From Pseudomonadota bacterium (lineage in GTDB: Bacteria > Myxococcota_A > UBA9160 > PR03), in NCBI GenBank assembly GCA_003576805.1, contig QEVM01000004.1:1-61635 (forward strand): 61,635 nt of DNA, written 5' to 3'. Both the position numbers and the translations under genes were made by a program. The notes beneath the pieces were generated by a model. That model was not told the origin of the DNA. It did no database searches and saw only the letters and a list, made by a program, of their open reading frames with translations. How positions within the stretch are numbered: the stretch's first letter is position 1; every line of letters begins with the position of its first letter. This document shows, piece by piece, positions 5,344 to 59,857 of this stretch.

Positions 5344-5378
5344 GCTTTCCTTCTCCGCCGCTGCCACCGGGACGTAGG

Positions 5379-6167
5379 ATGGACCCACTCCTCACCGAGG
5401 TGGACGCCGTGCGCACGCTACTCCAGGCATTCCCGCTCGTCGGCGCCGCTTGCGCGGCGTTCGCGCTCGCGCTGCCGGCCGCGCCGATCGCGCAGGCGGC
5501 GGCGCTGCCGTTCACGGGCACGCTCGCCGTCGAGTTCGGCGCGCCCCAGCCGCTCGTCGTGGCGGGCGCCGGCGCCGCGATCGTGAACGGATCGGGAGCG
5601 CCGGGCCCGATCACGAGCCTCGCGATCGGCACCTCGGTGTTCGCTGCGAACGCGCTCACCACGCCCGTCACCGATCCGGCCGCGTTCCCCGTCCAGGGCG
5701 TGCAGCTCACCGTGCACGTCCAGGGCGGAAGCTTCGCGGGCGCCGCTGGAAGCGGCGGCTTCGGTGGCGCGATGCCGCTCTACGGCAACGTGCGGACGTG
5801 CTTGTTCGGCGCGTGCCCGGTCGCGATCTCGAATCTCGTCGTGCCGCTCACGGTGGTGGGCCAGGGAGGCTGGGTCACGCTCATGGGCGCGGTGGGATAC
5901 ACCGTCGCCGGTGCGCCGTGGACGACGGGCACCGCCCTGGCGGGGACGCAGACGCGGATGGGCGGCGTCGCGACGACCGCGAGCGGCATGCAGACGCTGA
6001 CGCTCGTCACGCCGATCGTCGTGCGCACGCCGTTGACCGGTCTGGATCCGACGCTCGGCTTCGGCGTGCTGACGCTGCACCTCGTTCCCGAGCCCGGCAC
6101 GCTGGCGCTGCTCGGCGCGGGCGTCGCGCTGCTCGTCGCGCTCGGCCGCGGCGGCGCACGCGGCTGA
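5379..6167 (+). CDS. exported PEP-CTERM sorting-domain protein, unknown N-terminal domain
   Basis: Signal peptide ...AFALALPAAPIAQA. The alternative GTG start at 5409 with GAGG 9 nt upstream gives a cleaner signal peptide. C-terminus is VPEPGTLALLGAGVALLVALGRGGARG. The mature domain is paralogous to 52889..54067. Confidence 0.8.
   Translation: MDPLLTEVDAVRTLLQAFPLVGAACAAFALALPAAPIAQAAALPFTGTLAVEFGAPQPLVVAGAGAAIVNGSGAPGPITSLAIGTSVFAANALTTPVTDPAAFPVQGVQLTVHVQGGSFAGAAGSGGFGGAMPLYGNVRTCLFGACPVAISNLVVPLTVVGQGGWVTLMGAVGYTVAGAPWTTGTALAGTQTRMGGVATTASGMQTLTLVTPIVVRTPLTGLDPTLGFGVLTLHLVPEPGTLALLGAGVALLVALGRGGARG
6084..6164 (+). other. canonical PEP-CTERM sorting signal (VPEP, then TM helix, then basic tail)
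   Basis: Read directly from the translation of the last 27 codons. Confidence 0.8.
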
Positions 6168-10645: not shown

Positions 10646-11293
10646 TCACCGGCACGCGCCCTCGGTGTCCCCGTGCGCCTGGTGCGCCGGCCACGCCGCG
10701 GTGCCGACGGTGATCGTGTGCGCGTTGCCGGCGTTGCCGGGCGGCTCGTGGCAGATCGTGACCTTCGCCTCGGGCGACGGCCCCCAGTACACGACCGGCG
10801 TCGATCCGATCGGTTCGGTCTGCATCGAGAGCCCGCCGTCGACACCCTGCACGGTGCGCGTCGCGAACACGTGCACGGGGGTCAGGCTCGTCAGCAGGAA
10901 GAGACCCTGCACGAACGTCGTGGCCGGCGGCGGATCCTGGTAGAGGAACGCCGATCCGCGCAGATCGTCGCAGCTGACCTGGATCCCCGAACCGACCGGC
11001 ACCGTCTGCGAGATGACGTCCGATGCGTATCCCGGCAGCTGCCCGCCCGGCGGGAACGTGAGGAGGACCCGCTGATCGACGTGGGCCTCCCCGCGCGGGC
11101 TGTAGATGTCGATCGCGACTGCGTAGTCGCCCGGAAGGGCGCGACTGCGGTCGGTGGCGTCGTTCCCGCACGTGAAGGGGATCGCGTACTCGTAGGAGTA
11201 CACGATCGGCGGAGCCTTCTTCTTCTTGGCCTGCGCTGCAGGCCCGCTCACCACGAGCGCGGCCGTGATCGCGAACGCGAATGCGATGCGCAT
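10646..11293 (-). CDS. secreted hypothetical protein with C-terminal ICHxPPGNxxNxHTI motif
   Basis: The ATG at 11293 is preceded by a GGAGG-type RBS. Signal peptide MRIAFAFAITAALVVSGPAAQA followed by KKKK. C-terminal TICHEPPGNAGNAHTITVGTAAWPAHQAHGDTEGAC. Confidence 0.7.
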   Translation of the reverse strand: MRIAFAFAITAALVVSGPAAQAKKKKAPPIVYSYEYAIPFTCGNDATDRSRALPGDYAVAIDIYSPRGEAHVDQRVLLTFPPGGQLPGYASDVISQTVPVGSGIQVSCDDLRGSAFLYQDPPPATTFVQGLFLLTSLTPVHVFATRTVQGVDGGLSMQTEPIGSTPVVYWGPSPEAKVTICHEPPGNAGNAHTITVGTAAWPAHQAHGDTEGACR

Positions 11294-11480
11294 GACGAGA
11301 GCCTCCGTTGGGGATGGCCGAACATCGGACGGACCTCGTTCGGAGGTCGTGACCCGGCGCACGGCAAGTCGCGACGGGGAAACCGAAGCTGCTCGGCGGC
11401 GCGCCGTTCCTGGCGGGTTCGCGGCGTGGCGCTAGAGATGCGTCGCGCCGCGCGGTTGCGGCGCGCATCCCACGAGCACG

Positions 11481-12461
11481 ATGCGCACGATCGCTCGCAG
11501 CCTCGTCGTCACGGTGGCGCTCCTCGCGCTCGGCTGGTGCGCGCTCGCGCTCGGCTACACGCTGCCGGGGCCGCCGCTCGTCGGCAGGATGGTCGCGGGC
11601 CTCGCGGTCGCCGGCGGACTTCTCGGCTTTGGCGTGCTCGGTCTCGCGCGCGGCTGTGTGCTCGTCGCGGGGATCTTCGCGGTCGTCGTCGTCTGGTACG
11701 GCTCGCTCGCGCCGCCGCAGGACGCCGACTGGCAGCCGGACGTCGCGCGACTGCCGCGCGCGACGCTCGACGGCGACCGGCTCACCATCGAGAACGTCCG
11801 CAACTTCGACTACCGCTCCGAGACCGACTTCACGCCGCGCTGGGAGACGCGCAGCTACGACCTCTCGAAGATCGACGGCGTCGACATGTTCTTCTCGCAC
11901 TGGAGCGGGCCCGCGGTCGCGCACACGATCCTGTCGTGGTCGTTCGCGGACGGGCAGCACCTCGCGATCTCGATCGAGACGCGCAAGCGCGTCGGGCAGG
12001 AATACTCCGCCGTCGCGGGCTTCTTCCGCCAGTACCCGATCTACTACGTCGTCGCCGACGAACGCGACGTGGTGCGGCTGCGCACCAACCAGCGCGGCGA
12101 GAACGTCTGGATGTATCGCGTGAAGCCGGCCCGCCCCGGCGGCGAGCGGGCTCTGTTGCTCGACTACGTCGCGAGCATCGACGCGCTCGCCGAGCGGCCT
12201 GCGTGGTACGACGCGCTCACCGACAACTGCACGACCACGATCCACCGGCACGCGCAGCACCTGAACCCGGACGCCAATCCGCTCGACTGGCGGCTCTTCG
12301 CGAACGGGTACCTGCCGGAGCTCCTGTACGAGCAGGGGCGCATCGACACCAGTCTGCCGTTCGACGCGCTCGCGCGTCGCAGCCAGATCGACGAGCGCGC
12401 CAGAGCCGCCGATCGAGATCCCGCGTTTTCGGCGCGCATCCGCGCGCCGGCGGAACGCTGA
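11481..12461 (+). CDS. DUF4105 domain-containing membrane protein
   Basis: N-terminal TM helices, then RNFDY...WSGPAVAHTILSW...YPIYYVVADERD...DNCTT, which is typical of the DUF4105 (Lnb-like) family. Confidence 0.8.
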   Translation: MRTIARSLVVTVALLALGWCALALGYTLPGPPLVGRMVAGLAVAGGLLGFGVLGLARGCVLVAGIFAVVVVWYGSLAPPQDADWQPDVARLPRATLDGDRLTIENVRNFDYRSETDFTPRWETRSYDLSKIDGVDMFFSHWSGPAVAHTILSWSFADGQHLAISIETRKRVGQEYSAVAGFFRQYPIYYVVADERDVVRLRTNQRGENVWMYRVKPARPGGERALLLDYVASIDALAERPAWYDALTDNCTTTIHRHAQHLNPDANPLDWRLFANGYLPELLYEQGRIDTSLPFDALARRSQIDERARAADRDPAFSARIRAPAER

Positions 12462-38861: not shown

Positions 38862-39560
38862 ATGCAAGGCTCCGCGCGCCCGCTCGCTTGGCTCGTCTCG
38901 GCTCTCTTCACGGTGAACGTCGGCTGCGGTCAGATCCAGTTGCCGGTCACCTTCGCACTCCAGGGCGAGAACACGATCACGCTCGAGGTCCCGTTCTTCC
39001 CGCCCGGTAACAACGTCTTCTCGTCGTCGCTCCTCGGCGGCGCGGACGCCACCGTGTCGATCGATCTCAATCCCTTCGAGCTCTTCTCGCCGCAGGGCCT
39101 CGTCGCGCTGATCGCGATCGACCAGATCCGCATGGCCGGCACTCCGATCGATCTGTTCGGACTCAACACCGGCACGATCTGCATCTACGACGACGTCGAG
39201 AACCCCGGCGGCGGCATCGCCTACCTGCGCCCGCTGCGCCGCGAGGGCGACTTCACGCTCGCGTTCAACACGCTGATCTCGGTGACGGATCCGGTGTTGC
39301 TCGGCCTCTTCCCCGACCCGCTCCCGTTCGCCGCCGAGGTGGACACGACCGTGCCGATCACGCTGTCGGACCTCTTCGGCCTGATCGCCGGCAGCGGCTC
39401 GGGCGGCATCGAGCTGTCGCAGGAGCTGACCTCGACGCTGCCCGACATGCCGATCCTGGGCGGCTCGATCGTGACGGCCGACCTCACGCTGGCGACGGTC
39501 GAGGAGTTCCCGTCCGATCCGCTGCTCGACGAGTGCGAGGCGTTCATCGCAGGTCTCTGA
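38862..39560 (+). CDS. hypothetical lipoprotein
   Basis: GGAGG RBS. Signal peptide MQGSARPLAWLVSALFTVNVGC has a lipobox-like VGC. It has normal, locally lower-GC composition and sits 21 nt upstream of the large HAF-repeat gene. Confidence 0.7.
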   Translation: MQGSARPLAWLVSALFTVNVGCGQIQLPVTFALQGENTITLEVPFFPPGNNVFSSSLLGGADATVSIDLNPFELFSPQGLVALIAIDQIRMAGTPIDLFGLNTGTICIYDDVENPGGGIAYLRPLRREGDFTLAFNTLISVTDPVLLGLFPDPLPFAAEVDTTVPITLSDLFGLIAGSGSGGIELSQELTSTLPDMPILGGSIVTADLTLATVEEFPSDPLLDECEAFIAGL

Positions 39561-39581: not shown

Positions 39582-42500
39582 ATGACGTGCCACGTCCTCG
39601 AGCGCATGGGTGCCTTCGCGCTCGCTTGGCTCGTCACGCTCGGAGTCGCCGGCGCCGCGTGGGCGCAGAATCGCCCCGCGTTCACCGGTGTCGGCGACCT
39701 CGCGGGCGGCCCGATCTACAGCGCCGCCGAGAAGGTGTCGGACGACGGCGCGGTCGTCGTCGGCGGAAGCGAGAGCAGCTCCGGCCCGCAGGCGTACCGC
39801 TGGACCGAAGCGGGCGGCATCGTCGGACTCGGAGACCTGTCCGGCGGCGCGTTCGCGAGCCAGGCGACCGGCGTCTCCGCGAACGGCTCGGTGATCGTCG
39901 GCACCGGCGTCAACTCCAGCGACGAGAGCCGCGCGTTCCGCTGGACCTCCGGCTCCGGCCTCGTCGCCCTCAATGCGTTCTTCTGCTTCCTGTGCCCGGA
40001 CTATGGGTTCGGCACGACGGTGTCGGCGAACGGCCTGGTCGCCGTCGGCGGCAGCAACGACTCGAGCGACACGCTGGAGGCGGCGCGCTGGACCGGCGGC
40101 GGCACCTCGATCTCCGGTCTGGGCCGGCTCTCGGGCGGCTCGATCAGCGAGGCGCGGGGCGCCTCCTCCACCGGCTCGGTGATCGTCGGCGTGAGCGAGA
40201 GCAGCACGGGCTTCCGCGCCTTCCGCTGGTCGTCGGGCGGCGGCATCGTCGCGCTGCCCGAGGTGCCCGGCGCACAGGTCGAATCGGGCGCCAACGACGT
40301 CTCGGACGACGGCTCCGTGATCGTCGGCTACGCGAACACGAGCGCGACCAACACCGCGATGCCGCAGGCCGCGCGCTGGCTGGGCCCGAGCTACGGCGCG
40401 GCGAACCTGCTCGGCAGCCTGCCCGGTGCGCCGCTGCCCACGAGCCGGGCGCTCGCCGTCTCGGCCAACGGCGCGCTCATCGTGGGCAGCGCCAACGACG
40501 CGAACGGCGACGACGCCGCGTTCCTGTGGAGCGCGGCGCAGGGCATGCGCGAGCTGCGCAGCGTGCTCGCGGAGGACTACGGCGTCGACGTCGGCGCGTG
40601 GCAGCTCACCGCGGCGCGCGGCATCTCGAACGTGAACGCGGCGGGCGAGTTCTGGGTCGTCGGCGCCGGCGTGAACCCGAGCGGCAACCAGGAGGGCTGG
40701 GTCGCGCTGCTCTCGCCGACCGCCTGCAACGACGGCGTCGACAACGACGGCGACGGCGACGTCGACTTCGGCGACGACGCGCAGTGCATCGCCAAGGGCG
40801 ACCGCTCCGAGACGGCCGATTGCGGCGACGGCATCGACAACGACGGCGACGGGCAGACCGACTACCCGGCGGACGCCGGCTGCACCGCGGCGAGCGATCG
40901 GACCGAGCTGCCCGATTGCAGCGACGGCATCGACGACGACGGCGACGGGCTCACCGACTTCCCCGCCGATCCGGGCTGCCGCTCGGCGTCGTCCGCGGTC
41001 GAGAACCCCGCCTGCCAGAACGGCATCGACGACGACGGCGACGGCTCGATCGACTTCCCGGAGGCGGGCTGCGTCGCGAGCGACGACCGCTCGGAGATCG
41101 CCGACTGCGGCGACGGCCTCGACAACGACGGCGACGGCCTGGTCGACTCGCCCTCCGATCCCGACTGCGCCAACACCAGCGATCCCGCCGAGGACGCGCA
41201 GTGCGACGACCGCATCGACAACGACAACGACGGTGCGCGCGACTACCCGGATGCGTATCCCGCCTGCCAGAGCGCCGCGGACACCAAGGAACGTGCGGCC
41301 TGCTCGGATGGGATCGACGACGACGGCGACGGGCAGACCGACTTCCCGGCCGACGCCGGCTGCGCGAACGAGAAGTTCGGCAGCGAGGCGCCCGTCGCGA
41401 CGGCGATCGGCGATCTGCTCGTGCTCGACCGGCGCAGTCGCACGCTGTTCCGGCTCGACGTCGCGAGCGGCGCGCAAACGCCGATCTCGACGGCCGCGCA
41501 GCTCGCATCGCCGCAGGGCGTCGCGGTGCGCGGCAGCGGTGCGGTCGTGGTCGCGGACCCGTCGGGCCTCTACGAGGTGGCGCCGTCCACCGGCGCGCAG
41601 CGGCGCTTCTCGGACGCGCTCGCCGCCAACGAGTCGCTGCAGACCGTCTTCGAGGCGAGCGGCGACGCGATCGTGCTCGAGGCCGCCGGCCTCGCGCGCG
41701 TGCCGTTCCCCTATGGCGGCATCGCGTCGAAGACGCCGCTGCTGACGCTGCCGGTGTCCGGCGTGCTCTCGGTGTGGATCGGCGACGCGCTCGCGCGCGA
41801 GGCCTCGGGCAGTCTGCTGGCGACGGGCTTCGGACCGCTCGGCGACGGCATCTTCCGCATCGGCGCGAGCGGCTCGCCGGTCACCAAGGTGACGCCGAGC
41901 TTCTCGGCCGACACCTGGTCGGATCTCGCCGTCGAGGCGAGCGGCCAGATCCTCGCGGTCGGGACGCGGTTCGGTGTCGGAGCGGGCGTGTTCCGCGTGC
42001 ACCCGACGACCGGCGCCCGCACCGCGCTCTCGAGCGGCGCGCCGTGGGTGACGCCGATGGCGGTCGCCGTCGGGACGGGCGGCCAGATCTACGTCGCCGA
42101 CGCGGGCACGTGCGGCGCGGTCTCGTGCAGCGGCTCGGAGGTCGTGCAGGTCGATCCCGTGAGCGGCGCGCGGCTCGCCGTCCGCAGCGGCGGCTTCATC
42201 ACCGGCGAGATGGACCTCGCCGTCGTGACGGCGCTGCCGACGTGCGCCAACGGCGTCGACGACGACGGCGACGGCGCCACCGACTTCCCGGCCGACGCGC
42301 ACTGCCGCGCCTTCGAGGACCCGTCGGAGCACCCGGATTGCAGCAACGGCCTCGACGACGACGGCGACGGCGCGATCGACCACCCCGCCGACGCGGGCTG
42401 CGCGCAGGCGACCTCGGCGCGCGAGAACCCGCCGTGCAGCGACGGCATCGACAACGACGGCGACGGCCGCGTCGACTGGAACGGCGGCCCGGGCGGCGGC

Positions 42501-42623
42501 ACGCCCGACCCGCAGTGCGCTTCGCCGACCGGCGGCGCGGAGAAGGCCGCCTCGAGCTGCGGCTTCGGCGCCGAGATCGCGCTCGCGCTCGCGTTCTGGC
42601 GCTGGCGCCGCCGCCGAGCCTAG
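39582..42623 (+). CDS. large exported protein: six HAF repeats, seven DNDGDG repeats, a propeller-like region, three more DNDGDG repeats, then a Cys-type C-terminal sorting signal
   Basis: The signal peptide ends AAWA. Repeated (S/A)xGVSANGSVIVG...AFRW units are HAF-type. It has Cys-bracketed acidic repeats and a C-terminal SSCGFGAEIALALAFWRWRRRRA. Confidence 0.85.
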   Translation: MTCHVLERMGAFALAWLVTLGVAGAAWAQNRPAFTGVGDLAGGPIYSAAEKVSDDGAVVVGGSESSSGPQAYRWTEAGGIVGLGDLSGGAFASQATGVSANGSVIVGTGVNSSDESRAFRWTSGSGLVALNAFFCFLCPDYGFGTTVSANGLVAVGGSNDSSDTLEAARWTGGGTSISGLGRLSGGSISEARGASSTGSVIVGVSESSTGFRAFRWSSGGGIVALPEVPGAQVESGANDVSDDGSVIVGYANTSATNTAMPQAARWLGPSYGAANLLGSLPGAPLPTSRALAVSANGALIVGSANDANGDDAAFLWSAAQGMRELRSVLAEDYGVDVGAWQLTAARGISNVNAAGEFWVVGAGVNPSGNQEGWVALLSPTACNDGVDNDGDGDVDFGDDAQCIAKGDRSETADCGDGIDNDGDGQTDYPADAGCTAASDRTELPDCSDGIDDDGDGLTDFPADPGCRSASSAVENPACQNGIDDDGDGSIDFPEAGCVASDDRSEIADCGDGLDNDGDGLVDSPSDPDCANTSDPAEDAQCDDRIDNDNDGARDYPDAYPACQSAADTKERAACSDGIDDDGDGQTDFPADAGCANEKFGSEAPVATAIGDLLVLDRRSRTLFRLDVASGAQTPISTAAQLASPQGVAVRGSGAVVVADPSGLYEVAPSTGAQRRFSDALAANESLQTVFEASGDAIVLEAAGLARVPFPYGGIASKTPLLTLPVSGVLSVWIGDALAREASGSLLATGFGPLGDGIFRIGASGSPVTKVTPSFSADTWSDLAVEASGQILAVGTRFGVGAGVFRVHPTTGARTALSSGAPWVTPMAVAVGTGGQIYVADAGTCGAVSCSGSEVVQVDPVSGARLAVRSGGFITGEMDLAVVTALPTCANGVDDDGDGATDFPADAHCRAFEDPSEHPDCSNGLDDDGDGAIDHPADAGCAQATSARENPPCSDGIDNDGDGRVDWNGGPGGGTPDPQCASPTGGAEKAASSCGFGAEIALALAFWRWRRRRA
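39693..40568 (+). repeat. six HAF-family extracellular repeats (protein level)
   Basis: About 45-aa units ending in (Y/F)RW or FLW with a (S/D)(A/D)(N/D)G(S/A)V(I/V)VG core. The HAF repeat family is known to co-occur with PEP-CTERM systems. Confidence 0.7.
40725..41363 (+). repeat. seven tandem Cys-bracketed acidic repeats, CxDG(I/V/L)D(N/D)DGDGxxDxPxDxxC
   Basis: Read directly from the translation. Period is about 30 aa. The DxDxDG pattern looks calcium-binding. Confidence 0.85.
42243..42518 (+). repeat. three further DNDGDG repeats preceding the sorting signal
   Basis: CANGVDDDGDGATDFPADAHC, CSNGLDDDGDGAIDHPADAGC, CSDGIDNDGDGRVDWNGG...PDPQC. Confidence 0.85.
42552..42620 (+). other. Cys-containing tripartite C-terminal sorting signal (SSCGFGAE, hydrophobic helix, RRRR)
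   Basis: Last 23 codons. The same pattern occurs at 53960..54028, with a variant at 56465..56548. Confidence 0.6.
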
Positions 42624-44074: not shown

Positions 44075-44233
44075 GGGTCGCGGAGCCTATGAGAGCCGCC
44101 GCCGGGGCGTCAACGGCGCACGCGACAGATGTACAAGCCGCCCGCTGCGGCGGAAGGATGTGCACGCCTCGCGCGGCGGGGCGCTCGTTCGGCTGAGCGA
44201 CGAACTGGCACGCAGGATGCTGGCATCCTCGTC

Positions 44234-46108
44234 ATGCTCGGCACGAATACGCGTCGCGTTCTCGAGAGCGGGCGTCGCGCCGCGGCGTGCGCGGTCGTGT
44301 GCGTCGCGCTCGGCTGCGACGGCGCGCCGAGCGGCGACGCCGCCGCGCAGCCGGAGGCGCCGGCCGCCGTGCAGTCGGTGGCGGGCAGCAAGCCGGGCAT
44401 CCAGCTCGTGTCGCCGCTCCCCACGGGCGAGTGGCACCTGCCGAGCGGCGACTACGCGGCCACCCGCTTCAGCCCGCTCGATCAGCTCGACACGAGCAAC
44501 GTCGGCGGACTGAAAGTCGTCCACACCTTCTCGACCGGCACGCTGCGCGGCCACGAGGGCGGGCCGCTCATCGTCGGCGGCACGATGTACGTGACGACGC
44601 CGTACCCGAACAACCTGATCGCGATCGACCTGACGCAGCCCGGTGGCGCGATCCGCTGGATCTACGAGCCGAATCCCGATCCGCGCGCGGTCGGGATCGC
44701 GTGCTGCGACGTCGTGAACCGCGGCGCGTCCTACGCGAACGGCAAGATCATCTACAACCTGCTCGACGCGCACACGGTCGCGGTGGACGCCGAGACGGGC
44801 AAGGAGGTCTGGCGCACCAAGACGGGCAGCATCGACATCGGCGAGACGACGACGATGGCCCCGCTCGTCGTCAAGGACAAGGTGATCGTCGGCAACAGCG
44901 GGGGCGAGCTCGGCGTGCGCGGCTGGGTGCTCGCGCTCGACGTCGAGACCGGCAAGGAGCTGTGGCGCGCGTTCGCGGCGGGGCCGGACTCCGAGGTCTT
45001 GATCGGCGAGAACTTCCGGCCGTTCTACGAGAAGGACCGCGGCAAGGACCTCGGCGTGTCCTCCTGGCCGCCGGACCAGTGGAAGCTCGGCGGCGGCACG
45101 GCGTGGGGCTGGATCTCCTACGACCCGGCGCTCGACCTCATCTACTACGGCACCGGCAACCCGGGCGTGTGGAACCCGGATCTGCGCCCGGGCGACAACA
45201 AGTGGTCGTGCACGATCTTCGCGCGCGATCCCGACGACGGCTCCGCGCGCTGGGCGTACCAGATCAGCGCGCACGACGCGTGGGACTACGACGAGATCAT
45301 GGAGAACGTGCTCGTCGACATGGAATGGGGCGGGCGCATGCGCAAGCTCCTGATCCATCCCGGGCGCACCGGCTTCGTGTTCGTGCTCGACCGCGAGAGC
45401 GGCGAGCTGCTCTCCGCCGAGAAGTTCCAGCCCGTGAACTGGGCCGAGCGCTACGAGATCACGACCGGCAAGCCGGTCGAGGTCCCCGAGAAGCGCACGC
45501 GCGGCGGCGCGGTGACGCACAACATCTGCCCGTCCTCGACCGGCGCGAAGGAGTGGAACCCGTCGGCGTTCTCGCCGCGCACCGGACTGCTCTACATCGC
45601 CGCGCACAACACCTGCATGGACTACGAGGGCATCGAAGCCAACTACATCGCCGGCACGCCCTATCTCGGCGCGAGCGTGAAGATGTATCGCGGTCCCGGC
45701 GGCTACCACGGCGAGCTGGTCGCGTGGGATCCCGTGCAGGCGAAGCCGGTGTGGACGATCCGCGACGAGAAGCTCCCGCTCTACAGCGGCGTGCTCGCGA
45801 CGGCGGGCGACCTGGTCTTCTACGGCCGCATGGACGGCTGGTTCCACGCCGTCGACGCGCGCGACGGACGCGAGCTGTGGAAGTTCAAGACGGGCTCGGG
45901 AGTCATCGGCAACCCGGTCACGTACATCGGCCCCGACGGCAAGCAGTACGTCGCGGTGTACTCGGGCGTCGGCGGCTGGATGGGCGCCGTCGCCTTCCCC
46001 GGCGTGTCCGCCGACGACCCGTACGCCGCGCTCGGCGTGGTCGGCGCGATGGCGGACATCAAGAAGCACACCGTGCAGGGCGGCATGGTGTACGTGTTCG
46101 GGCTGTGA
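44234..46108 (+). CDS. xoxF: PQQ-dependent methanol/ethanol-family dehydrogenase, XoxF-type (lanthanide signature)
   Basis: Eight-bladed propeller W-motifs, vicinal Cys-Cys (ACCDVVNRG, 44702..44707), and HDAWDYDE with the extra Asp (D-Y-D at 44284+1000, i.e. 45284..45292). The N-terminus has a lipobox-like VALGC. Confidence 0.88.
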   Translation: MLGTNTRRVLESGRRAAACAVVCVALGCDGAPSGDAAAQPEAPAAVQSVAGSKPGIQLVSPLPTGEWHLPSGDYAATRFSPLDQLDTSNVGGLKVVHTFSTGTLRGHEGGPLIVGGTMYVTTPYPNNLIAIDLTQPGGAIRWIYEPNPDPRAVGIACCDVVNRGASYANGKIIYNLLDAHTVAVDAETGKEVWRTKTGSIDIGETTTMAPLVVKDKVIVGNSGGELGVRGWVLALDVETGKELWRAFAAGPDSEVLIGENFRPFYEKDRGKDLGVSSWPPDQWKLGGGTAWGWISYDPALDLIYYGTGNPGVWNPDLRPGDNKWSCTIFARDPDDGSARWAYQISAHDAWDYDEIMENVLVDMEWGGRMRKLLIHPGRTGFVFVLDRESGELLSAEKFQPVNWAERYEITTGKPVEVPEKRTRGGAVTHNICPSSTGAKEWNPSAFSPRTGLLYIAAHNTCMDYEGIEANYIAGTPYLGASVKMYRGPGGYHGELVAWDPVQAKPVWTIRDEKLPLYSGVLATAGDLVFYGRMDGWFHAVDARDGRELWKFKTGSGVIGNPVTYIGPDGKQYVAVYSGVGGWMGAVAFPGVSADDPYAALGVVGAMADIKKHTVQGGMVYVFGL

Positions 46109-46569
46109 GGCGGGCGCGCGCCGTGCGGCCGTCTCTCGTGCTCGGCGCGCTGGCGCTCGCCGCCGCCGCGTGCGAGCGCAGCACGCAGACGCAGCCCCCG
46201 GCGGCGGCGGCCGGCGCGCCCGCGGCGCACTACGCGGTCGGACCGATTCCCGGCGGCGGCGAACGCTCCGAGCGCACCAATCCGTTCGCCGACGACCGGG
46301 GCGCGGCCACGTCCGGGCGCCGGCTCTTCGTCGCGTACAACTGCGCCGGCTGTCACGGCGGCCACGCCGGCGGCGGCATGGGACCGAGCCTGCGCGACGA
46401 CGTCTGGCTCTACGGCGGGGCCGACGGCGACGTGTTCGCGTCGATCGCCGAGGGCCGCGCCAACGGGATGCCCGCGTGGGGCACGCTGCTGCCCGAGTCG
46501 CAGATCTGGCTGCTCACGACGTACGTGAAGTCGCTGCGCACGCCCCACGAAGCGCAGCCGCCGCGGTGA
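46105..46569 (+). CDS. xoxG: c-type cytochrome (XoxG-like electron acceptor)
   Basis: The GTG start overlaps the xoxF stop (GTGA). The signal peptide ends AAAAC. It has a single CAGCH heme motif (46342..46356) and a distal Met region (NGMPAWG). Confidence 0.8.
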   Translation: MRRARAVRPSLVLGALALAAAACERSTQTQPPAAAAGAPAAHYAVGPIPGGGERSERTNPFADDRGAATSGRRLFVAYNCAGCHGGHAGGGMGPSLRDDVWLYGGADGDVFASIAEGRANGMPAWGTLLPESQIWLLTTYVKSLRTPHEAQPPR

Positions 46570-46605
46570 CGACGCGATTCCGCGTCGGTGAAGGAGGCGA
46601 AGCTC

Positions 46606-47421
46606 ATGCACGCTCGCAACGCACTGCTCTCGTTCGCGCTCGCGGGGCTCCTCGTCGCGGGCGGCTGCGGCGACGACGCGCGGCGCGCCGCGCAGGACGA
46701 CGCGACGCCGCCCGTCGCGGCGGGCGAGCCGCAGCCGGCCGCCCAGCGCGAGGCCCGCGCGGCAGAGACGGGCTGCGACGCGCTGCCGTCCGCCGACGAG
46801 CTGCGCCGCCTGCTGGGCGAGGCGCCCGACGCGGGCGACGCGGGCGGGCTCTTCGGCGGCCGCAAGGAGTGGGTCGCGACGGTGAACCGCTCGGGCGAGC
46901 TGTGCGCGGTCGTCGTCTCGACCGACGATCCCGCCGCGGCGTGGCCCGGCAGCCAGGCGATCGCGAAGGCGAAGGCGTACACCGCCAACGCCTTCAGCAC
47001 GGACGACACGCCGCTCTCGACGGCGCGCCTCTACACGATGACGCAGCCGGGGCACTCGCTGTACGGCCTGCACGCGGCGAACCCGATGCATCCCGACTGC
47101 CTCGCCGCGCCGGACGAGCACCGGGACGCCGAACGCCGCATCTGCGGCGGCATCATCACCTTCGGCGGCGGCGTCCCGCTCTACCGGGACGGCAAGCGCG
47201 TCGGCGGTCTGGGCGCGAGCGGCGACACCGCGTGCGCCGATCACGAGATCGCCAAGCGCATCCGCGACAAGGCGGGCCTGAACCCGCCGGGCGGTCCGGG
47301 CGCCGACGACATCACGTACGCGTCCAGCGACGGCGCCACGCCTTTCACGCACCCGCTCTGCGCGAACACCTGGCGCGACGGCCAGCAGATCGGCGACGAA
47401 TCGCCCGCGAGCGGGTACTGA
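46606..47421 (+). CDS. GlcG/HbpS-like (DUF336) heme-binding-type lipoprotein
   Basis: AAGGAGG lies 8 nt before the ATG at 46606. The signal peptide has LLVAGGC. The C-terminal half (AIAKAKAYTANAFS...GGIITFGGGVPLY..GKRVGGLGASGDT) matches the GlcG/DUF336 fold. Confidence 0.75.
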   Translation: MHARNALLSFALAGLLVAGGCGDDARRAAQDDATPPVAAGEPQPAAQREARAAETGCDALPSADELRRLLGEAPDAGDAGGLFGGRKEWVATVNRSGELCAVVVSTDDPAAAWPGSQAIAKAKAYTANAFSTDDTPLSTARLYTMTQPGHSLYGLHAANPMHPDCLAAPDEHRDAERRICGGIITFGGGVPLYRDGKRVGGLGASGDTACADHEIAKRIRDKAGLNPPGGPGADDITYASSDGATPFTHPLCANTWRDGQQIGDESPASGY

Positions 47422-47422
47422 G

Positions 47423-48253
47423 GTGAAGCGGCGTCCGCTCGCCGGCGCGGCGCTCGCGGCCTTCGCGACGCTCGCGGCGCTCGGGCCGGCGCGCGCGGTC
47501 GCGGCCGAGGCGGCGAAGCCGGCGCGCACGCTGCGCGTGTGCGCCGACCCGAACAACATGCCGTTCTCGAACGAGCGCCGCGAAGGCATGGAGAACGCGC
47601 TCGCCGAGCTGGTCGCGCGCGAGCTCGGCGCGACCGTCGAGTACACCTGGCTGCCGCAGCGACGCGGCTTCGTGCGCAACACGCTCGGCGCGCAGCTGTG
47701 CGACGTGATGATGTCCGCGCCGACGAGCTTCGAGCGGGTCCTCACGACCGCGCCGTACTACCGCTCGACCTACGTCTTCGTGCAGCGCGCCGGCGCCGAG
47801 CCGATCCGCTCCTTCGACGATCCCGCGCTGCGCACTTTGCGCGTCGCGGTGCAGCTCGTCGGCGACGACGGCTGGAACACGCCGCCGGCGCACGCGCTGG
47901 CCAAGCGCGGCATCGTGGCCAACGTGCGCGGCTACACGCTCTACGGCGACTACGCGCAGCCGGACCCGCCGGCGCGCATCGTGGACGCGGTCGCGCGCGG
48001 CGACGTCGACGTCGCGGTCGCGTGGGGTCCGCTGGCGGGCTGGTTCGCGACGCGCGAGCCGGTGCCGCTCGCGCTCACGCCGGTGTCGCCGCAGATCGAC
48101 CTGCCGTTCCTGCCGTTCGTGTTCGACATCGCGATGGGCGTGCGGCGCGGCGACGAGCGGCTGCGCGACGAGCTCGACGGCGTGATCGAGCGGCGGCGCG
48201 CCGAGATCGACGCGCTGCTCGCGCGCTACGGCGTGCCGCGGGTGGACCGGTGA
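47423..48253 (+). CDS. xoxJ: quinoprotein dehydrogenase-associated periplasmic binding protein (MoxJ/XoxJ family)
   Basis: Signal peptide, then LRVCADPNNMPFSN, which is the hallmark of the MoxJ/XoxJ SBP-like family. The start is GTG. Confidence 0.85.
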   Translation: MKRRPLAGAALAAFATLAALGPARAVAAEAAKPARTLRVCADPNNMPFSNERREGMENALAELVARELGATVEYTWLPQRRGFVRNTLGAQLCDVMMSAPTSFERVLTTAPYYRSTYVFVQRAGAEPIRSFDDPALRTLRVAVQLVGDDGWNTPPAHALAKRGIVANVRGYTLYGDYAQPDPPARIVDAVARGDVDVAVAWGPLAGWFATREPVPLALTPVSPQIDLPFLPFVFDIAMGVRRGDERLRDELDGVIERRRAEIDALLARYGVPRVDR

Positions 48254-52825: not shown

Positions 52826-53626
52826 CGCGCCGCATTGACTTCCGTGTGTCGCGCATGGGACGATGACCCGACGGAGGAGATCGTCCACATGCCGCGTTCG
52901 ACACGCCTCCTGCATGGCATCGCGCTCGCCGGGTTGCTCGCACTTCCCGCGTCCACGTCGGCCTTTCCGCTTTAGTACACGGGTACGCTCTCGATCCGCT
53001 ACCTCGGGCATCCTCCGCTCGTGTCGTCCGCCGGCTCGGGCACCGCCGAGGTGCAGGCCACCGCCGGGCTCTTGCAGAGCGCGCAGCTCGAGGCCGGCCT
53101 GGACTTCTTCGGCTTCGCGAGCGTCGTGCCGAGCGCCACCTCCGTCTATCCCGTCATCGGCATCAGCGGGCAGTTCGCCTTGTGGCCGGTGTCCAGCCCG
53201 ACGGCGCAGACGATCGCGCGGCAGACCAGCGGCCGGCTCGGGGCCGCGATCCCGCTGTTCGGTTACAGCCGCGTGTGCCTGTTCGGCACGAGCTGCGCGA
53301 ACGCGACCGCCGACCTCTCGATCTTCTTGAACTCGGGGAACGAGGCGGTCGGCTTCGGAGGCGCGTGGACCGTCGCGATCCCCGGCGACCCGAACGTGTA
53401 CGTCACGGGCGCGCCGTGGACGACGGGCACCGCGGACGCCGGAATGGGCGTCACTGCGATGGGATTCGCGCGCGGTCCGGATTCGAACCCGGGCAGCACG
53501 GCCCGCAGCGGCGGCCAGATGAATCTCGTGACGCCGATCTTCGTGCGCTCCGTCATCGGCGGGAACACGTATCGCCTGCCCGGGGTCGCCACACTGGCCC
53601 TCGAGTTCACGAGCGACGCGCCGGCG

Positions 53627-53929
53627 TGCAACAACGGCGACGATGACGATGGCGACGGGCTGGGCGACTACCCTGCCGATCCCGGCTGCGTGAGCGGCGA
53701 CGATCCGTCCGAGAAGGATGCGTCGCTCGCCTGCGACGACGGAATCGACAACGACGGCGACGGCTTCATCGACGATCCCGCCGATCCCGGCTGCTTCGAT
53801 CCGGCCTGGGCGCAGGAGGACTCCAAGTGCCAGAACGGCCTGGACGACGACGGCGATGGCGCGATCGACTTCGACGGCGGCGCGTCCGTGCATGGGGGCA
53901 CGCCGATCGCCGCCCCGGATCCGCAATGC
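53627..53929 (+). repeat. three DNDGDG Cys-bracketed acidic repeats
   Basis: CNNGDDDDGDGLGDYPADPGC, CDDGIDNDGDGFIDDPADPGC, CQNGLDDDGDGAIDFDGG...PDPQC. Confidence 0.85.
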
Positions 53930-53959
53930 GGGCAGGCTCACAGGAACCGCGAGGCCCCG

Positions 53960-54028
53960 TCGTCGTGCGGGCTCGGCGCCGAAGTGGCGCTCGCGCTGGC
54001 TGGCCTCGTCGCGTGGCGCCGCCGCCGC
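53960..54028 (+). other. Cys-containing C-terminal sorting signal (SSCGLGAEVALALAGLVAWRRRR)
   Basis: Read from the translation. It is followed by a 13-aa basic tail. Confidence 0.6.
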
Positions 54029-54121
54029 GGTGACCGCTCCGGCCGTGGGAGCGCGATCGACCGCTGATCCGGTGTGGTCCCGCCCCGCGACCGGCGGATC
54101 CCGCGAATCCTGCGAGCTGGC

Positions 54122-56461: not shown

Positions 56462-59400
56462 CTAGGCGATCAGCAGCCGCAGCCTCCGCACGCCGAGGAG
56501 GCCGAGGAGCAGGAAGGGCTCGACGCCGGTCAGACCGCACGAGCTGGACTGCGCGACGATCTGCACCGATACGTTCTCCTGCGACTCGCAGCCTTCCGGG
56601 TTGACCACGCGCACCGGGTGCGAGCCGACCGAGAGGGACGGCCCGGTCGGGAGCTGCGCGATCCAGTAGCCCTCCACGAGCTGCGGCGTGATCTGGACGT
56701 TGGACACCCAGAGCTCGACGTTCGGCCCGAAGCCGGTGCCGTTGAGCTGGATGTTCTGGCCCTTCTTGGCCGACGCCGGCGCGATGCTGGTCAGCGTGGT
56801 GGTGACGCCGACGCACAGGTCGTCGCAGACGTTGCCGACGCCGTCGGCGTCGGTGTCGGTCTGGTCGGCGTTCGCCTTCGCGGCGCAGCTGTCGCACGCG
56901 TCGCCGACGCCGTCGACGTCCACGTCGGCCTGGCCGACGTTCGGGACGTCGACGCAGTTGTCGACGCCGTCGAGCACGCCGTCGCGGTCGCGCTCGATGC
57001 CGGCGCGCTGGCCGGCGCCGGGCGTCGCGCAGGTGTAGGTCAGCTCCTGGCCGGGCGTCGCCGCCAGCGAGCGCAGCGCGGCGTCGCTCACGTTGGCGCC
57101 GCCGTCGTCGGGCCGGAAGCTGCCGAGGCCGGGCTCGTAGACCCAGCCCTTGTCGGCGCCGCCGATCGCGCCCTTCACGACGAGGTCGCACTCGTTCTGG
57201 CCGGCGCCGAGCACCTGCGACGTGAACGGCGTGCCGGCGCGGGCGATCATCGTGTTGATGCGGGCGCCGACGACTCCCGCGTTGGTGCTCGTCAGCGTCA
57301 CCTGCTGGCCGACGATCGGCGCGAGGTCGCTGTCGAAGGCGAGCATGAACTGCTCGACGTCGCGGCGCACGCCGTTGCCGTTGGTGCTCGACGGGAAGCC
57401 CACCGTGCCGAGCCCGAGCGGGTTCGCCTGGTTGAACACCGTCGCCTGGAAGAAGTGGAAGACGGTGTCGGTGCTGCCGTCGTGCAGGAAGCCGAAGCCG
57501 CGCACCTGGTCGCCCTGGTGCGGCATGTTGATCGCGTTGTTGAACGCGACGTCCGGCATGCCGAACATGCCGACCTTCTGATAGAGATTGCGCAGGTGCG
57601 CGATCTTCATGATCTGCGACTCGTTCTCGAAGCTCGCCTGGCCGTCGGTTCCGAAGAAGCCCTGCGACGCGTTGAGACCGTGGCAGCCCTGGCAGGTGAA
57701 GCCGAAGTTGTTGACGTTGACGCCGTCGGAGCGCCGGCCGTTGACGTTGCCGCCGCCGACGCCCGTGTTGGCCGGGTTCGGACCGCCCGCCGTGAAGTTG
57801 TTGCCCAGGAAGAAGTTGCGGCCGTTGGCCTGCGCCGGCGTCAGCGTGTTGTCGATGTTGCGCACCGGGTTCGGCGGCAGGATCACGTCGAGCGTGAAGT
57901 CGCTGAACGACTGCATGTCGGTGTTCGCGAGCAGCGACGAGCGGCCGACGAGGCCCGGGAACGCGACGATGAAGTTGCGGAACGAGAGGTCCTCGTTCGT
58001 CGCCGACTGCCCGAAGAAGCCGTTCGAGCGGTCTCCGCGCCAGTGCATCGGGCCCGAGTTCTTCATGCCGCGCAGCGTCTGCGTCGTCATCGGGCCCTTG
58101 AGGGCGCTGAACTCGGCCACGTTGCCGGTGCCGTTGATGTCGCCGCCCGCGCCGATCGAGAGCCGGATCGGCATCGGGTTGCTGGTGGCCTCGTCGTCGG
58201 GATTGCCGAGGTCCCAGGCGATCTGGTCCATGTCGCCGAAGATGTGGCAGGACGAGCACGAGGCCTCGCCGTTGCTCGACGTCTCGACGGCGTCGTAGAG
58301 GAAGCGGCGGCCGGTCACGACGTGCGCCGGCTCCGGGTTGAAGAGCGCGACGTGCGCGATCTCGCTGCTGGTGCCCAGGTCGATCACCGACACCGCGTTG
58401 TCGAAGCGCGTCAGCACGTAGAGGCGGTCGCGCGCCTCGTCGAGGACGAGGCCGCCGGGACCGCCGCCCGTCACGTCGAGGTACTGCGCGCTCTGCAGCG
58501 TCGGGTCGAAGCTGTCGTTCTCGAGCGTGGCCGTGTCGAACACGCCCACCCGCGAGGAGCCGAACGCCGCCACGTAGAGCTTGGTGCCGTCCGAGGACAC
58601 GACCATCTCGACCGGCGTCGCGAGGCTGTGGTCCGCGGTGCCCGCGGGCGCCGGCAGCACCGAGTAGTCGATGTGCTTGTTGAGGTGGCGCGGCAGCACG
58701 TTGGCGCCGTCGAGCACCGTGATGCGCGACTGCGCGAGGTTGCCCTGCACGGTCGCCGGCTCGCCCACCGGCTTGAAGCCGTTGTTGGTCACGTAGGTGC
58801 CGGGACCCTCGAAGCGCACCTCGTTCTTCGCCTCGGTGTTCGAGACGTAGACCTTCCCGGTCACCGGGTTGGTCGCGACGTTGAAGAGCGTCGTGCCGAC
58901 GCCGCTCCAGGCGCCCGTCTCGATCAGCGTGCTGGCGTCGATCGAGAAGACGTCGTAGTCGGGCAGGTTGAAGCGAACGGCCTGGCTCCAGTCGCGGCCG
59001 CGCTCGTCCTCCCACTTCGAATTCGAGTCGTTGAACTTGACGATGATGCCGACCTCGGGCGCCTGGTTGCCCACGTGGTCGGTGGACGGCGGCAGCACGC
59101 CGCCCGGCGTCTGCAGGCCCTGCGAGTTGGTGCAGGGCGCGTTGATGTTGAAGCCGTTGCAGACCATGCCTTCGCTGACGGTCGTGGTCTTGTTGCCCGA
59201 CGCGAAGATGGCGGCGTAGACGGTGTTGCCGTCGGGGCTGACGGCGAGGCCGCGCGGGGTGTCGCCGAAGAGCGTCACGATGCGCAGCGGGACGCCGCCG
59301 ATCGCGGCGCCGAGGTTGGTCGCGTCGAACACCCAGACGTCGGCGCGGCCGACGCCCGAGGTCGTGAGCTGCGGGTCGCCGGCGCCCGGCACGCCGGCGA

Positions 59401-59857
59401 GCGACGCGTCGTTGCGGTGCTGGCCGCGGTGCGCGGTCGTGACGAAGGCGCGCGTGCCGCCCGGCCCGGCGAACACCAGGTCGCGCGGCTCGTCGCCGAC
59501 CAGGAGCGTGCGGACGACGCGGGGCGGATTGGCCGCGACGTCGACGATGCTGACGCTGTCGGAGAGGTGGTTCACCACCCACACTTCCGAGTTGGTTCGC
59601 GCGACGGCGGTCACCGGCTCGAGGCCGACCGCCACCGATCCCACCTTCGCGATGCCGCCGGCGCCGATCTGGAAGATCTCCAGTCGCGCATCGGGCGTGT
59701 TCACCGCGAAGAGTCGCGTCCCGTCGGGGGACATCGACAACGGTCGGACCGGCCCCGACTCGAACTCGATGAAGTCCGCGGCTCGCGCCGGCATCGCGAG
59801 CGTGGCGATGGTCAGACCGACCGCCAGACAGACGGGAAGCAACCGCACCCTCGGCAT
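56462..59857 (-). CDS. 1131-aa exported fusion: YVTN-type beta-propeller, CCP/MauG-like di-heme domain, TSP3-like Asp repeats, IPT/TIG-like domain, Cys-type C-terminal signal
   Basis: Signal peptide ...ATLAMPARA. SPDG..(L/V)(F/Y)(A/V) propeller units. FLYDAVETSSNGEASCSSCH (58244..58258) and FGFTCQGCH (57680..57694), with HLRNLYQ and GFLHDGSTDT resembling bacterial cytochrome c peroxidases. DGVDNC...DVDGVGDACD...DTDADGVGNVCD. C-terminus SSSCGLTGVEPFLLLGLLGVRRLRLLIA. Confidence 0.85.
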   Translation of the reverse strand: MPRVRLLPVCLAVGLTIATLAMPARAADFIEFESGPVRPLSMSPDGTRLFAVNTPDARLEIFQIGAGGIAKVGSVAVGLEPVTAVARTNSEVWVVNHLSDSVSIVDVAANPPRVVRTLLVGDEPRDLVFAGPGGTRAFVTTAHRGQHRNDASLAGVPGAGDPQLTTSGVGRADVWVFDATNLGAAIGGVPLRIVTLFGDTPRGLAVSPDGNTVYAAIFASGNKTTTVSEGMVCNGFNINAPCTNSQGLQTPGGVLPPSTDHVGNQAPEVGIIVKFNDSNSKWEDERGRDWSQAVRFNLPDYDVFSIDASTLIETGAWSGVGTTLFNVATNPVTGKVYVSNTEAKNEVRFEGPGTYVTNNGFKPVGEPATVQGNLAQSRITVLDGANVLPRHLNKHIDYSVLPAPAGTADHSLATPVEMVVSSDGTKLYVAAFGSSRVGVFDTATLENDSFDPTLQSAQYLDVTGGGPGGLVLDEARDRLYVLTRFDNAVSVIDLGTSSEIAHVALFNPEPAHVVTGRRFLYDAVETSSNGEASCSSCHIFGDMDQIAWDLGNPDDEATSNPMPIRLSIGAGGDINGTGNVAEFSALKGPMTTQTLRGMKNSGPMHWRGDRSNGFFGQSATNEDLSFRNFIVAFPGLVGRSSLLANTDMQSFSDFTLDVILPPNPVRNIDNTLTPAQANGRNFFLGNNFTAGGPNPANTGVGGGNVNGRRSDGVNVNNFGFTCQGCHGLNASQGFFGTDGQASFENESQIMKIAHLRNLYQKVGMFGMPDVAFNNAINMPHQGDQVRGFGFLHDGSTDTVFHFFQATVFNQANPLGLGTVGFPSSTNGNGVRRDVEQFMLAFDSDLAPIVGQQVTLTSTNAGVVGARINTMIARAGTPFTSQVLGAGQNECDLVVKGAIGGADKGWVYEPGLGSFRPDDGGANVSDAALRSLAATPGQELTYTCATPGAGQRAGIERDRDGVLDGVDNCVDVPNVGQADVDVDGVGDACDSCAAKANADQTDTDADGVGNVCDDLCVGVTTTLTSIAPASAKKGQNIQLNGTGFGPNVELWVSNVQITPQLVEGYWIAQLPTGPSLSVGSHPVRVVNPEGCESQENVSVQIVAQSSSCGLTGVEPFLLLGLLGVRRLRLLIA
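56465..56548 (-). other. variant Cys-containing / PEP-like C-terminal sorting signal
   Basis: SSSCGLTGVEPFLLLGLLGVRRLR combines the SSCGL of the other two proteins with a VEP-hydrophobic-basic layout like PEP-CTERM. Confidence 0.5.

Follow-up and report, generated by a model that had tools for sequence, protein, structure and literature searches.

A candidate cysteine-type C-terminal sorting signal on exported proteins of uncultured Myxococcota

C-terminal sorting signals determine which proteins a bacterium displays on its surface, and so far each newly recognised class has brought a new processing enzyme to light. An invariant cysteine and conserved residues within the transmembrane (TM) segment are the published hallmarks of signals processed by CPBP proteases, and modification of that cysteine followed by processing by CPBP/Rce1-type myxosortases has been described (Haft preprint 10.1101/2023.06.07.544157; Guo et al. 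2025, PMC11980579). The reference system is MYXO-CTERM, represented by the models TIGR03901.2 and TIGR03382 and by the myxosortases MrtX, MrtC and MrtP (Haft 2023; Guo, Haft and Wall 2025); its TM region has no charged or Pro residues, and the double cysteine GCGC is frequent (Haft 2023, Fig. 1 legend; 10.1101/2023.06.07.544157). Here we describe a Cys-containing C-terminal tail that is encoded three times in a stretch of 61,635 nucleotides (the window: contig QEVM01000004.1, positions 1 to 61,635, assembly GCA_003576805.1; 70-75 % G+C) from a bacterium named Pseudomonadota in GenBank and placed in Myxococcota_A by GTDB. Comparison of the tail sequences gives good support to the view that it serves as a modular sorting or anchoring signal. 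By analogy we also think it on balance probable that it is a lineage-specific Cys-type sorting signal working like MYXO-CTERM, through Cys modification, intramembrane cleavage and surface anchoring.

The tail and the three proteins that carry it

The original prediction, made from the letters of the window and their open reading frames (ORFs), was that three proteins end with the same tripartite layout, and all three tails can be read directly in the sequence. The C-termini are KAASSCGFGAEIALALAFWRWRRRRA for P1 (tail stretch also given as SSCGFGAEIALALAFWRWRRRRA), EAPSSCGLGAEVALALAGLVAWRRRRGDRSGRGSAIDR for P2 (tail SSCGLGAEVALALAGLVAWRRRR, then 12 further residues) and QSSSCGLTGVEPFLLLGLLGVRRLRLLIA for P3 (tail stretch also given as SSSCGLTGVEPFLLLGLLGVRRLRLLIA). 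The features are as follows (aa, amino acids; HMM, hidden Markov model).

39582..42623, plus strand: P1, exported protein of 1013 aa with a signal peptide, HAF repeats, 10 acidic double-disulfide repeats (NF033662) and a type-A Cys tail
42504..42620, plus strand: P1 sorting module, PDPQC-x13-C-GFGAE-IALALAFWRW-RRRRA; Cys codon 42558..42560; tail HMM E-value 2e-8
52889..54067, plus strand: P2, with a signal peptide, a TAG at 52973..52975, a domain in common with the PEP-CTERM protein, 3 acidic repeats (NF033662) and a type-A Cys tail
53915..54064, plus strand: P2 sorting module, PDPQC-x12-C-GLGAE-VALALAGLVAW-RRRR plus 12 extra residues; Cys codon 53966..53968; tail HMM E-value 5e-12
56462..59857, minus strand: P3, exported protein of 1131 aa with a signal peptide, YVTN beta-propellers, thrombospondin-3 repeats, an Ig-like repeat and a type-B Cys tail
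56465..56602, minus strand: P3 sorting module, NPEGC-x16-C-GLTGVE-PFLLLGLLGV-RRLRLLIA, with one residue more between Cys and Glu; Cys codon 56539..56537
5379..6167, plus strand: PEP-CTERM protein with VPEPG at about 6084..6098 and a passenger domain homologous to that of P2; TIGR02595 16.9 bits, cut-off 16

Positions 42552..42620 are the final 23 codons of P1. Two of the genes differ from what was predicted, although their tails stand. The plus-strand translation of 56462..59857 is unrelated, and P3 is encoded on the minus strand, not the plus strand. P2 is not an intact gene, as an in-frame TAG lies directly after a good signal peptide (MPRSTRLLHGIALAGLLALPASTSA) and before the mature domain, with homologous sequence in frame on both sides, and the uninterrupted ORF is 53021..54067. 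The TAG is taken to be real in the population, since Logan contigs from two other public runs carry it too, and P2 is probably a nonsense-disrupted gene in which the mutation has become fixed. N-terminal signal peptides are clear in P1 and P3, and that of P2 sits upstream of the TAG. The passengers of the three proteins are unrelated to one another, because their domain contents differ: HAF repeats in P1, a domain like that of the PEP-CTERM protein in P2, and YVTN, thrombospondin-3 and Ig-like repeats in P3. The thrombospondin-3 repeats of P3 resemble those of the MYXO-CTERM protein MtsC.

The core of the tail is C-G-[LFIV]-(x)-G-x-E, followed by a short Leu/Pro-rich membrane segment and an Arg cluster, and it occurs as type A (C-G-x-G-x-E) and type B (C-G-x-x-G-x-E; P3). 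Of the invariant Ser-Ser-Cys-Gly that had been proposed, the Cys and Gly hold in an alignment of 61 tails, in which only C, G(+1), G(+3) and E(+5) are invariant, but the serines do not hold in the wider family (position -1 is S in 34 % and G in 30 %). The Cys, rightly singled out as the defining residue, is constant in this alignment and in 206 type-A and 59 type-B tails. Among the 206 type-A tails, positions +1, +3 and +5 are G, G and E in 100 %, +2 is L in 89 %, +4 is F or A (jointly 78 %), +6 is L (76 %), +7 A (74 %), +10 L (80 %), +11 P (71 %) and +13 L (83 %), with R at +17 to +21 in 64-89 %; position +9 is L, V or A. About 11 hydrophobic residues, Pro often among them, separate the Glu from the Arg cluster. 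The proteins end a median of 25 residues after the Cys (25-26 across types A and B), and the basic cluster is reached after a median of 17 (17-18 across both types), a distance so short that any predicted membrane span must begin at the Cys and include the Glu.

Acidic double-disulfide repeats usually precede the core, and a further Cys stands upstream in a [DE]-P-x-C or P-[DE]-x-C context in all 260 tails with enough upstream sequence, at a distance from the invariant Cys that is mostly 12-16 residues for type A and 16-19 for type B. Written out in extended form, the consensus reads P-D-P-Q-C-x2-K-P-W-[RK]-N-[KR]-E-x3-6-C-G-L-G-[FA]-E-L-A-L-L-L-P-L-L-x2-L-R-R-R-R. By its sequence type B is the type-A signature plus one residue; the P1 orthologues P0031 (CGLTGAE) and P0040 (CGLLGIE) bridge the two types, and the P3 tail scores weakly against the type-A HMM (16 bits). 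The variant is kept in 59 tails, nearly all of them of P3 orthologues, some 60 of which (55-81 % identical) retain N-P-E-G-C-x16-C-G-[LF]-[TLI]-G-I-E-[PA]-F-x-L-L-G...R-R.

The wider tail family and the curated models

When the six-frame ORFs of the window and 36 loci (0.61 Mb) were searched with the tail HMM, matches within the window fell only at the C-termini of P1, P2 and P3 (E-values 2e-8, 5e-12 and 2e-3), with the next unrelated ORF at 0.6; as the training set contained the P1 and P2 tails, it is the P3 match and the clean background that give independent support. A shorter local HMM that begins four residues before the Cys recovers all tails of the fetched loci with no other match.

The existence of a wider family had been set beforehand as the decisive check against simple paralogy. 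With HMMER, a profile of the 61 tails finds 1,892 proteins at E<=1e-3 among 1.84 billion cluster representatives, 67 of them at E<=1e-10; the profile spans 14 residues upstream of the Cys and so favours proteins with a terminal acidic repeat. Among the best 149 of the 1,892 matches, which range from 48 to 3425 aa, the motif is present in all but one and the Cys lies no more than 45 residues from the C-terminus in 141; almost all matches fall at the extreme C-terminus. Two of these 149 have the Cys more than 90 residues from the end, with the Arg cluster running in frame into an apparent next-gene signal peptide, and look like read-through into the following gene. The passengers of 58 full-length members include FG-GAP, CAP, trypsin, subtilase, matrixin, metallophosphatase, beta-helix, RCC1, LVIVD and choice-of-anchor Q domains, and 51 of the 58 match the acidic repeat model. 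The prediction of a modular C-terminal signal apart from PEP-CTERM is thus upheld on many unrelated passengers, and the family has the generic features of Haft's class of tripartite sorting domains: a signature, a TM helix and a basic cluster at the extreme C-terminus of signal-peptide proteins that are otherwise non-homologous, with many copies per genome.

Three copies of the tail are present in the 61-kb window, and up to three lie within 5 kb at one other locus (L026). We note that tandem arrays of P2-family genes occur there (L026 5434..10147) and in proteins P0221 and P0234, and that in these arrays the Arg cluster of the tail continues in frame, with no stop, into the signal peptide of the next gene (e.g. 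LHRRRRRAGAGMLAALLALLAIGVPGGARAAELPFSG); such arrays could reflect read-through fusions, indels in the assembly (a Nanopore metagenome-assembled genome, MAG) or real polyproteins.

The 119 P1 homologues listed are 34-75 % identical to P1 and mostly full-length orthologues; where NCBI names them, it is as 'hypothetical protein [Myxococcota bacterium]'. A word-index search with three tails of 46-57 residues, for which the index needs several shared 5-mers, found one protein only, a fragment of a P3 orthologue. A genome scan built from 12 canonical tails used the exact word CGLG[FA]ELAL, the only word scanned, and gave 35 confirmed loci, all in MAGs, among 185,579 species-representative genomes, and 109 confirmed loci, of which 80 were kept, in JGI metagenomes. 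The titles of 32 of the 35 MAGs read Myxococcota, Deltaproteobacteria or Myxococcales/Myxococcaceae, and those of the other three 'Spirochaetales'. The tail marks at least 1,892 protein clusters, now annotated as hypothetical and including adhesin-like repeat proteins, proteases and phosphatases, from Myxococcota MAGs recovered in metagenomes of soil, sediment and sludge. An HMM built for the tail would sharpen this annotation, define the surface proteome of these organisms and provide a clean query for phylogenetic profiling toward the enzyme.

All three window tails stay below the curated cut-offs of NCBIfam release 20 (June 2026), and Pfam has nothing on the tails. P2 alone has any match, with 21.7 bits (cut-off 29) to GVDTG_CTERM (NF058571), over positions 16-44 of that 44-position profile, and 17.2 bits (cut-off 20) to TIGR03901.2; P1 and P3 match neither TIGR03901.2 (cut-off 20 bits) nor TIGR03382 (15.85 bits). 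The nearest curated models are those for MYXO-CTERM, below threshold: at E<=1, nine of the 61 family tails match TIGR03382 and seven TIGR03901, with one tail reaching a cut-off (TIGR03382, 16.8 bits against 15.85), and at E<=0.015 at most one of the 58 full-length members matches a MYXO-CTERM model. Four of the 61 tails match Synerg-CTERM TIGR04564 at E<=1 (best E 0.011), two match GlyGly-CTERM TIGR03501 (best E 0.1) and two match GVDTG, while the PEP-CTERM models TIGR02595 and PF07589 match neither the three window tails nor any of the 61. A literature search on the motif, GVDTG and the acidic repeat gave nothing relevant and no description of the tail. As had been supposed, the tail belongs to no named class, and those in the window are not ordinary PEP-CTERM or MYXO-CTERM.

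Anchor exchange, cysteine parity and the processing enzyme

Orthologous passengers do not always carry the same anchor. Of the 119 listed homologues of P1, 58 have acidic repeats followed by a C-terminal C-G-[LIVF]-G-x-E tail, and 52, which are shorter, end in PEP-CTERM. Homologues of P3 carry type B, with one case of type A (P0353) and one of a canonical GGGCGCQ... MYXO-CTERM (P0378), and those from Binatia have no tail. Within the window, the protein at 5379..6167, correctly predicted to end in PEP-CTERM, has a passenger 41 % identical to the P2 domain over 105 aa (E 8e-12), and the two part exactly where one has VPEPG and the other begins its acidic repeats. Read from the sequences, the anchor is swapped on orthologous passengers between this tail, PEP-CTERM and, once, MYXO-CTERM. 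About 20 PEP-CTERM tails, and no canonical MYXO-CTERM tail, were seen in approximately 1.1 Mb around the tail genes, and in this uncultured Myxococcota lineage the tail seems to coexist with PEP-CTERM and to take the place of canonical MYXO-CTERM.

An odd number of cysteines in the mature part, the tail Cys included, is found for 96 of 115 type-A and 46 of 51 type-B proteins (83-90 %; the counts are 25 for P1, 9 for P2 and 15 for P3), whereas 32 of 37 PEP-CTERM orthologues have an even number. Because of this difference the tail Cys is probably unpaired, as expected of a modified residue, if the remaining cysteines pair in disulfides. The parity result fits a free Cys, and lipid attachment and cleavage at this residue, as originally suggested, would be consistent with it.

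We infer that a CPBP/myxosortase-type enzyme reads the tail, because of the unpaired invariant Cys, the conserved in-membrane residues, the weak similarity to MYXO-CTERM models and the Myxococcota labels, which match those of published myxosortase signals. The protein would be exported by Sec through the N-terminal signal peptide seen in its sequence, and the segment of about 17 residues from Cys to Arg would, from its architecture, serve as a stop-transfer anchor that leaves the Arg cluster on the cytoplasmic side. By analogy, the unpaired Cys at the outer face would then be modified, probably with lipid; an intramembrane endopeptidase would read the G-L-G-x-E...P face in the membrane and cut off the helix and Arg cluster; and the mature protein would be shown on the cell surface on a stalk of acidic repeats. 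A buried Glu together with an unpaired Cys at the membrane boundary would make the tail a compact test case for substrate reading by CPBP-type or other intramembrane proteases.

Several observations weigh against a MYXO-CTERM-like mechanism. No processing enzyme was identified in the window or the tail-gene flanks, and no CPBP gene was found in the window or the approximately 1.1 Mb of flanks (multi-TM ORFs only, part of them compared with Pfam). Exosortase genes are present in these genomes, twice no more than 10 kb from a tail gene, and the taxon labels are taken from record titles only. Unlike MYXO-CTERM, the tail has an invariant Glu at +5 and frequent Pro at +11 (71 %) in its TM region, and a second Cys never lies within 8 residues N-terminal of the invariant one (0 of 206 type-A tails), whereas GCGC is frequent in MYXO-CTERM.

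The absence of a cognate enzyme from the window had been predicted, and no CPBP, exosortase or rhomboid gene was found there; its only ORFs with at least three predicted TM segments encode an ABC transporter and an Lnb_N protein. No myxosortase (NF040914 core; MrtX, MrtC, MrtP) was found in the window or the flanks, and searches for the CPBP motif EExxxR...FxxxH...HxxxN returned noise only. The 23 multi-TM neighbours identified with Pfam or NCBIfam comprise transporters, two exosortases, one rhomboid, one S2P-like protease, ICMT/PEMT-like proteins and a TadB-like T2SSF protein, with no CPBP among them. No neighbour family recurs beside the tail genes in an all-against-all BLAST comparison of the multi-TM ORFs of 35 loci and the coding-like ORFs of 115 loci, the largest neighbour clusters covering 8 of the 115. 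When the surroundings of P1 and P3 orthologues on contigs of Mb size were annotated with Pfam, an upstream lipoprotein was the only conserved feature. The lack of a recurring membrane family in the flanks is what would be expected of a housekeeping enzyme that serves many clients, as has been argued for myxosortase.

More tentatively, the tail may define a sorting system in its own right, served by a dedicated enzyme (of a new Mrt/CPBP subfamily or of another kind), and this system would have replaced canonical MYXO-CTERM across the uncultured Myxococcota lineage; it might belong to a bacterial counterpart of the full CAAX pathway, with Cys lipidation, cleavage after the Cys and carboxyl methylation of the new C-terminus. 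The idea of a CAAX-like pathway comes from ICMT/PEMT-superfamily genes found directly beside tail genes in three loci. Five genes for membrane methyltransferase-like proteins of the ICMT/PEMT/DUF1295 superfamily occur near tail genes (L010 about 10721..11380; L027 7602..8090, minus strand; L056 9625..10410, minus strand; L036 3110..3772, minus strand; and L004 14841..15434), and three of these adjoin them, namely those of L010 (between two tail genes), L027 (72 bp away) and L056. The chance of three adjacent genes in five is near 0.01, a rough estimate from small numbers with the background unknown, and no such neighbour lies beside three further P1 orthologues on large contigs. The adjacency recalls the final step of CAAX processing and is a lead only.

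It is unlikely, in our judgement, that the tail is an exosortase substrate, that is, a divergent PEP-CTERM relative with G-x-E in place of P-E-P and a dedicated exosortase paralogue. Such a relationship would suit the alternation of tail and PEP-CTERM on the same passenger families, the conserved Glu, which is a PEP hallmark, and the presence of PEP-CTERM tails and exosortases on the same contigs. The exosortases are XrtA in L013 (17325..18230, minus strand; 217.9 bits, cut-off 208) and a divergent one in L016 (2388..3287, the same as L037 5247..6149), which scores 101.8 bits against an EpsH cut-off of 105.55, passes the TIGR04178 exosortase/archaeosortase signature, has an EpsI-like neighbour and lies 4 kb upstream of a P1 orthologue. 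These two are, however, the only ones in the approximately 1.1 Mb of flanks, and neither adjoins a tail gene. Moreover, Pro-Glu-Pro is absent, the PEP-CTERM models give no match, the distance from Glu to the basic cluster is 11-13 residues rather than the 20 or so of PEP-CTERM orthologues, and an unpaired invariant Cys is foreign to every exosortase signal.

We give slightly less credence to a permanent membrane anchor, in which the motif would serve helix packing or oligomerisation and no proteolytic sorting would take place. Tripartite tails are able in principle to act as plain stop-transfer anchors, and a failure to find an enzyme would follow naturally, but a span of 17 residues that holds two Gly, a Pro and a buried invariant Glu is ill suited to anchor a protein stably. 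The strict C-G-x-G-x-E on unrelated passengers argues for recognition by one common machine, the tail changes places with PEP-CTERM and MYXO-CTERM, both of them processed signals, and Cys parity suggests a free, reactive Cys.

Rhomboid substrates typically have helix-destabilising residues in the TM segment, such as the G, G and P here, and L017 and L123 have rhomboid genes no more than 10 kb from tail genes, so that a rhombosortase-like rhomboid might cleave the tail with the Gly-rich C-G-L-G acting as a GlyGly-CTERM. We regard this as improbable. The GlyGly-CTERM model barely touches the family, as noted above, the L017 rhomboid falls far below the rhombosortase cut-off (TIGR03902, 31.8 against 84 bits), rhomboids are common housekeeping genes, and the invariance of the Cys would be left unexplained. 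Finally, the notion that there is nothing special here, only an ordinary MYXO-CTERM or PEP-CTERM known to the models or three paralogous tails, has the single tail above the TIGR03382 cut-off in its favour and is refuted, the first part by the window-tail scores and the 58-member comparison and the second by the 1,892 clusters, with the name 'hypothetical protein' given to the homologues also against it.

Immediately 5' of P1 is a lipoprotein gene (38862..39560, plus strand; about 235 aa, lipobox ...NVGC, no Pfam match), and a lipoprotein gene lies directly 5' of every P1 orthologue examined (L037 9275..9994; L121 9267..9980; L122 9296..9994; L123 9188..9895), so that the two form a conserved two-gene unit. 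The gene for a TadB/T2SS-F-like membrane protein (L042 252..1133, on a 1.2-kb metagenome contig) starts 9 bp past the end of a tail gene, a single case. Elsewhere in the window, a membrane protein with a periplasmic Lnb_N domain (former DUF4105; E 6e-39) is encoded at 11481..12461 (plus strand), and a Sulfotransfer_3 gene at 4078..5388 (minus strand) shares its position in part with the first bases of the oppositely oriented PEP-CTERM gene; in another genome a Sulfotransfer_3-family gene (L118 17165..18553), followed by an LPG_synthase_TM gene, lies 4 kb from a P3 orthologue. After a gene for a PQQ-dependent alcohol dehydrogenase-type beta-propeller come an HbpS-like gene and one for a family-3 solute-binding protein (44129..48253, plus strand). 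The rest of the window is rich in genes of acyl-CoA metabolism (AMP-binding ligases, thiolase, CoA transferase and acyl-CoA dehydrogenase).

Comparison with known sorting systems

Among described systems the tail shares with PEP-CTERM/exosortase the tripartite layout, a conserved Glu before or within the helix, the passenger families and the genomes in which both occur; it differs in having no P-E-P, a shorter hydrophobic span, an invariant Cys and no match to the models. The eukaryotic CAAX system (prenylation, Rce1, ICMT) is similar in that the model proposed for signals of this kind is C-terminal processing that centres on a Cys and is carried out by a CPBP-type protease, and in the ICMT/PEMT-superfamily genes beside some tail genes. 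A CAAX signal, however, has four residues, whereas the tail has about 25 with a TM helix and is known here from its sequence.

The archaeal CGP-CTERM (MrtA) is likewise a short signal with Gly directly after the Cys, and Synerg-CTERM (MrtS) a short signal with a conserved Pro in a Leu-rich helix, but these belong to other lineages (Thermococcales and Synergistetes, respectively) and lack G-x-E. JDVT-CTERM (MrtJ) has a single invariant Cys, an acidic residue conserved within a Leu-rich TM segment and an Arg cluster, as the tail does. It differs in having D-P nine residues past the Cys, where the tail has L, V or A, and in its host group, the Pseudomonadota; it also occurs about once per genome beside its protease, whereas here three tail genes lie within 61 kb with no adjacent protease.

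With MYXO-CTERM the tail has in common many clients per genome, diverse adhesin and hydrolase passengers with signal peptides, apparently the phylum Myxococcota (going by MAG labels) and, in the P3 homologue P0378, the very position at which the signal is attached. MYXO-CTERM occurs in Myxococcota or Bradymonadales; the tail hits divide by title alone into the 32 and three MAGs given above, the three being Spirochaetales. Besides the Glu, the Pro and the lack of an adjacent second Cys already described, the tail departs from MYXO-CTERM in that its Cys abuts the helix directly, with no spacer, that it scores under the cut-offs and that it coexists with PEP-CTERM. Since several of the defining traits of MYXO-CTERM fail, we do not file the tail as a member of that family; it is kept apart from MYXO-CTERM yet placed within the same kind of signals.

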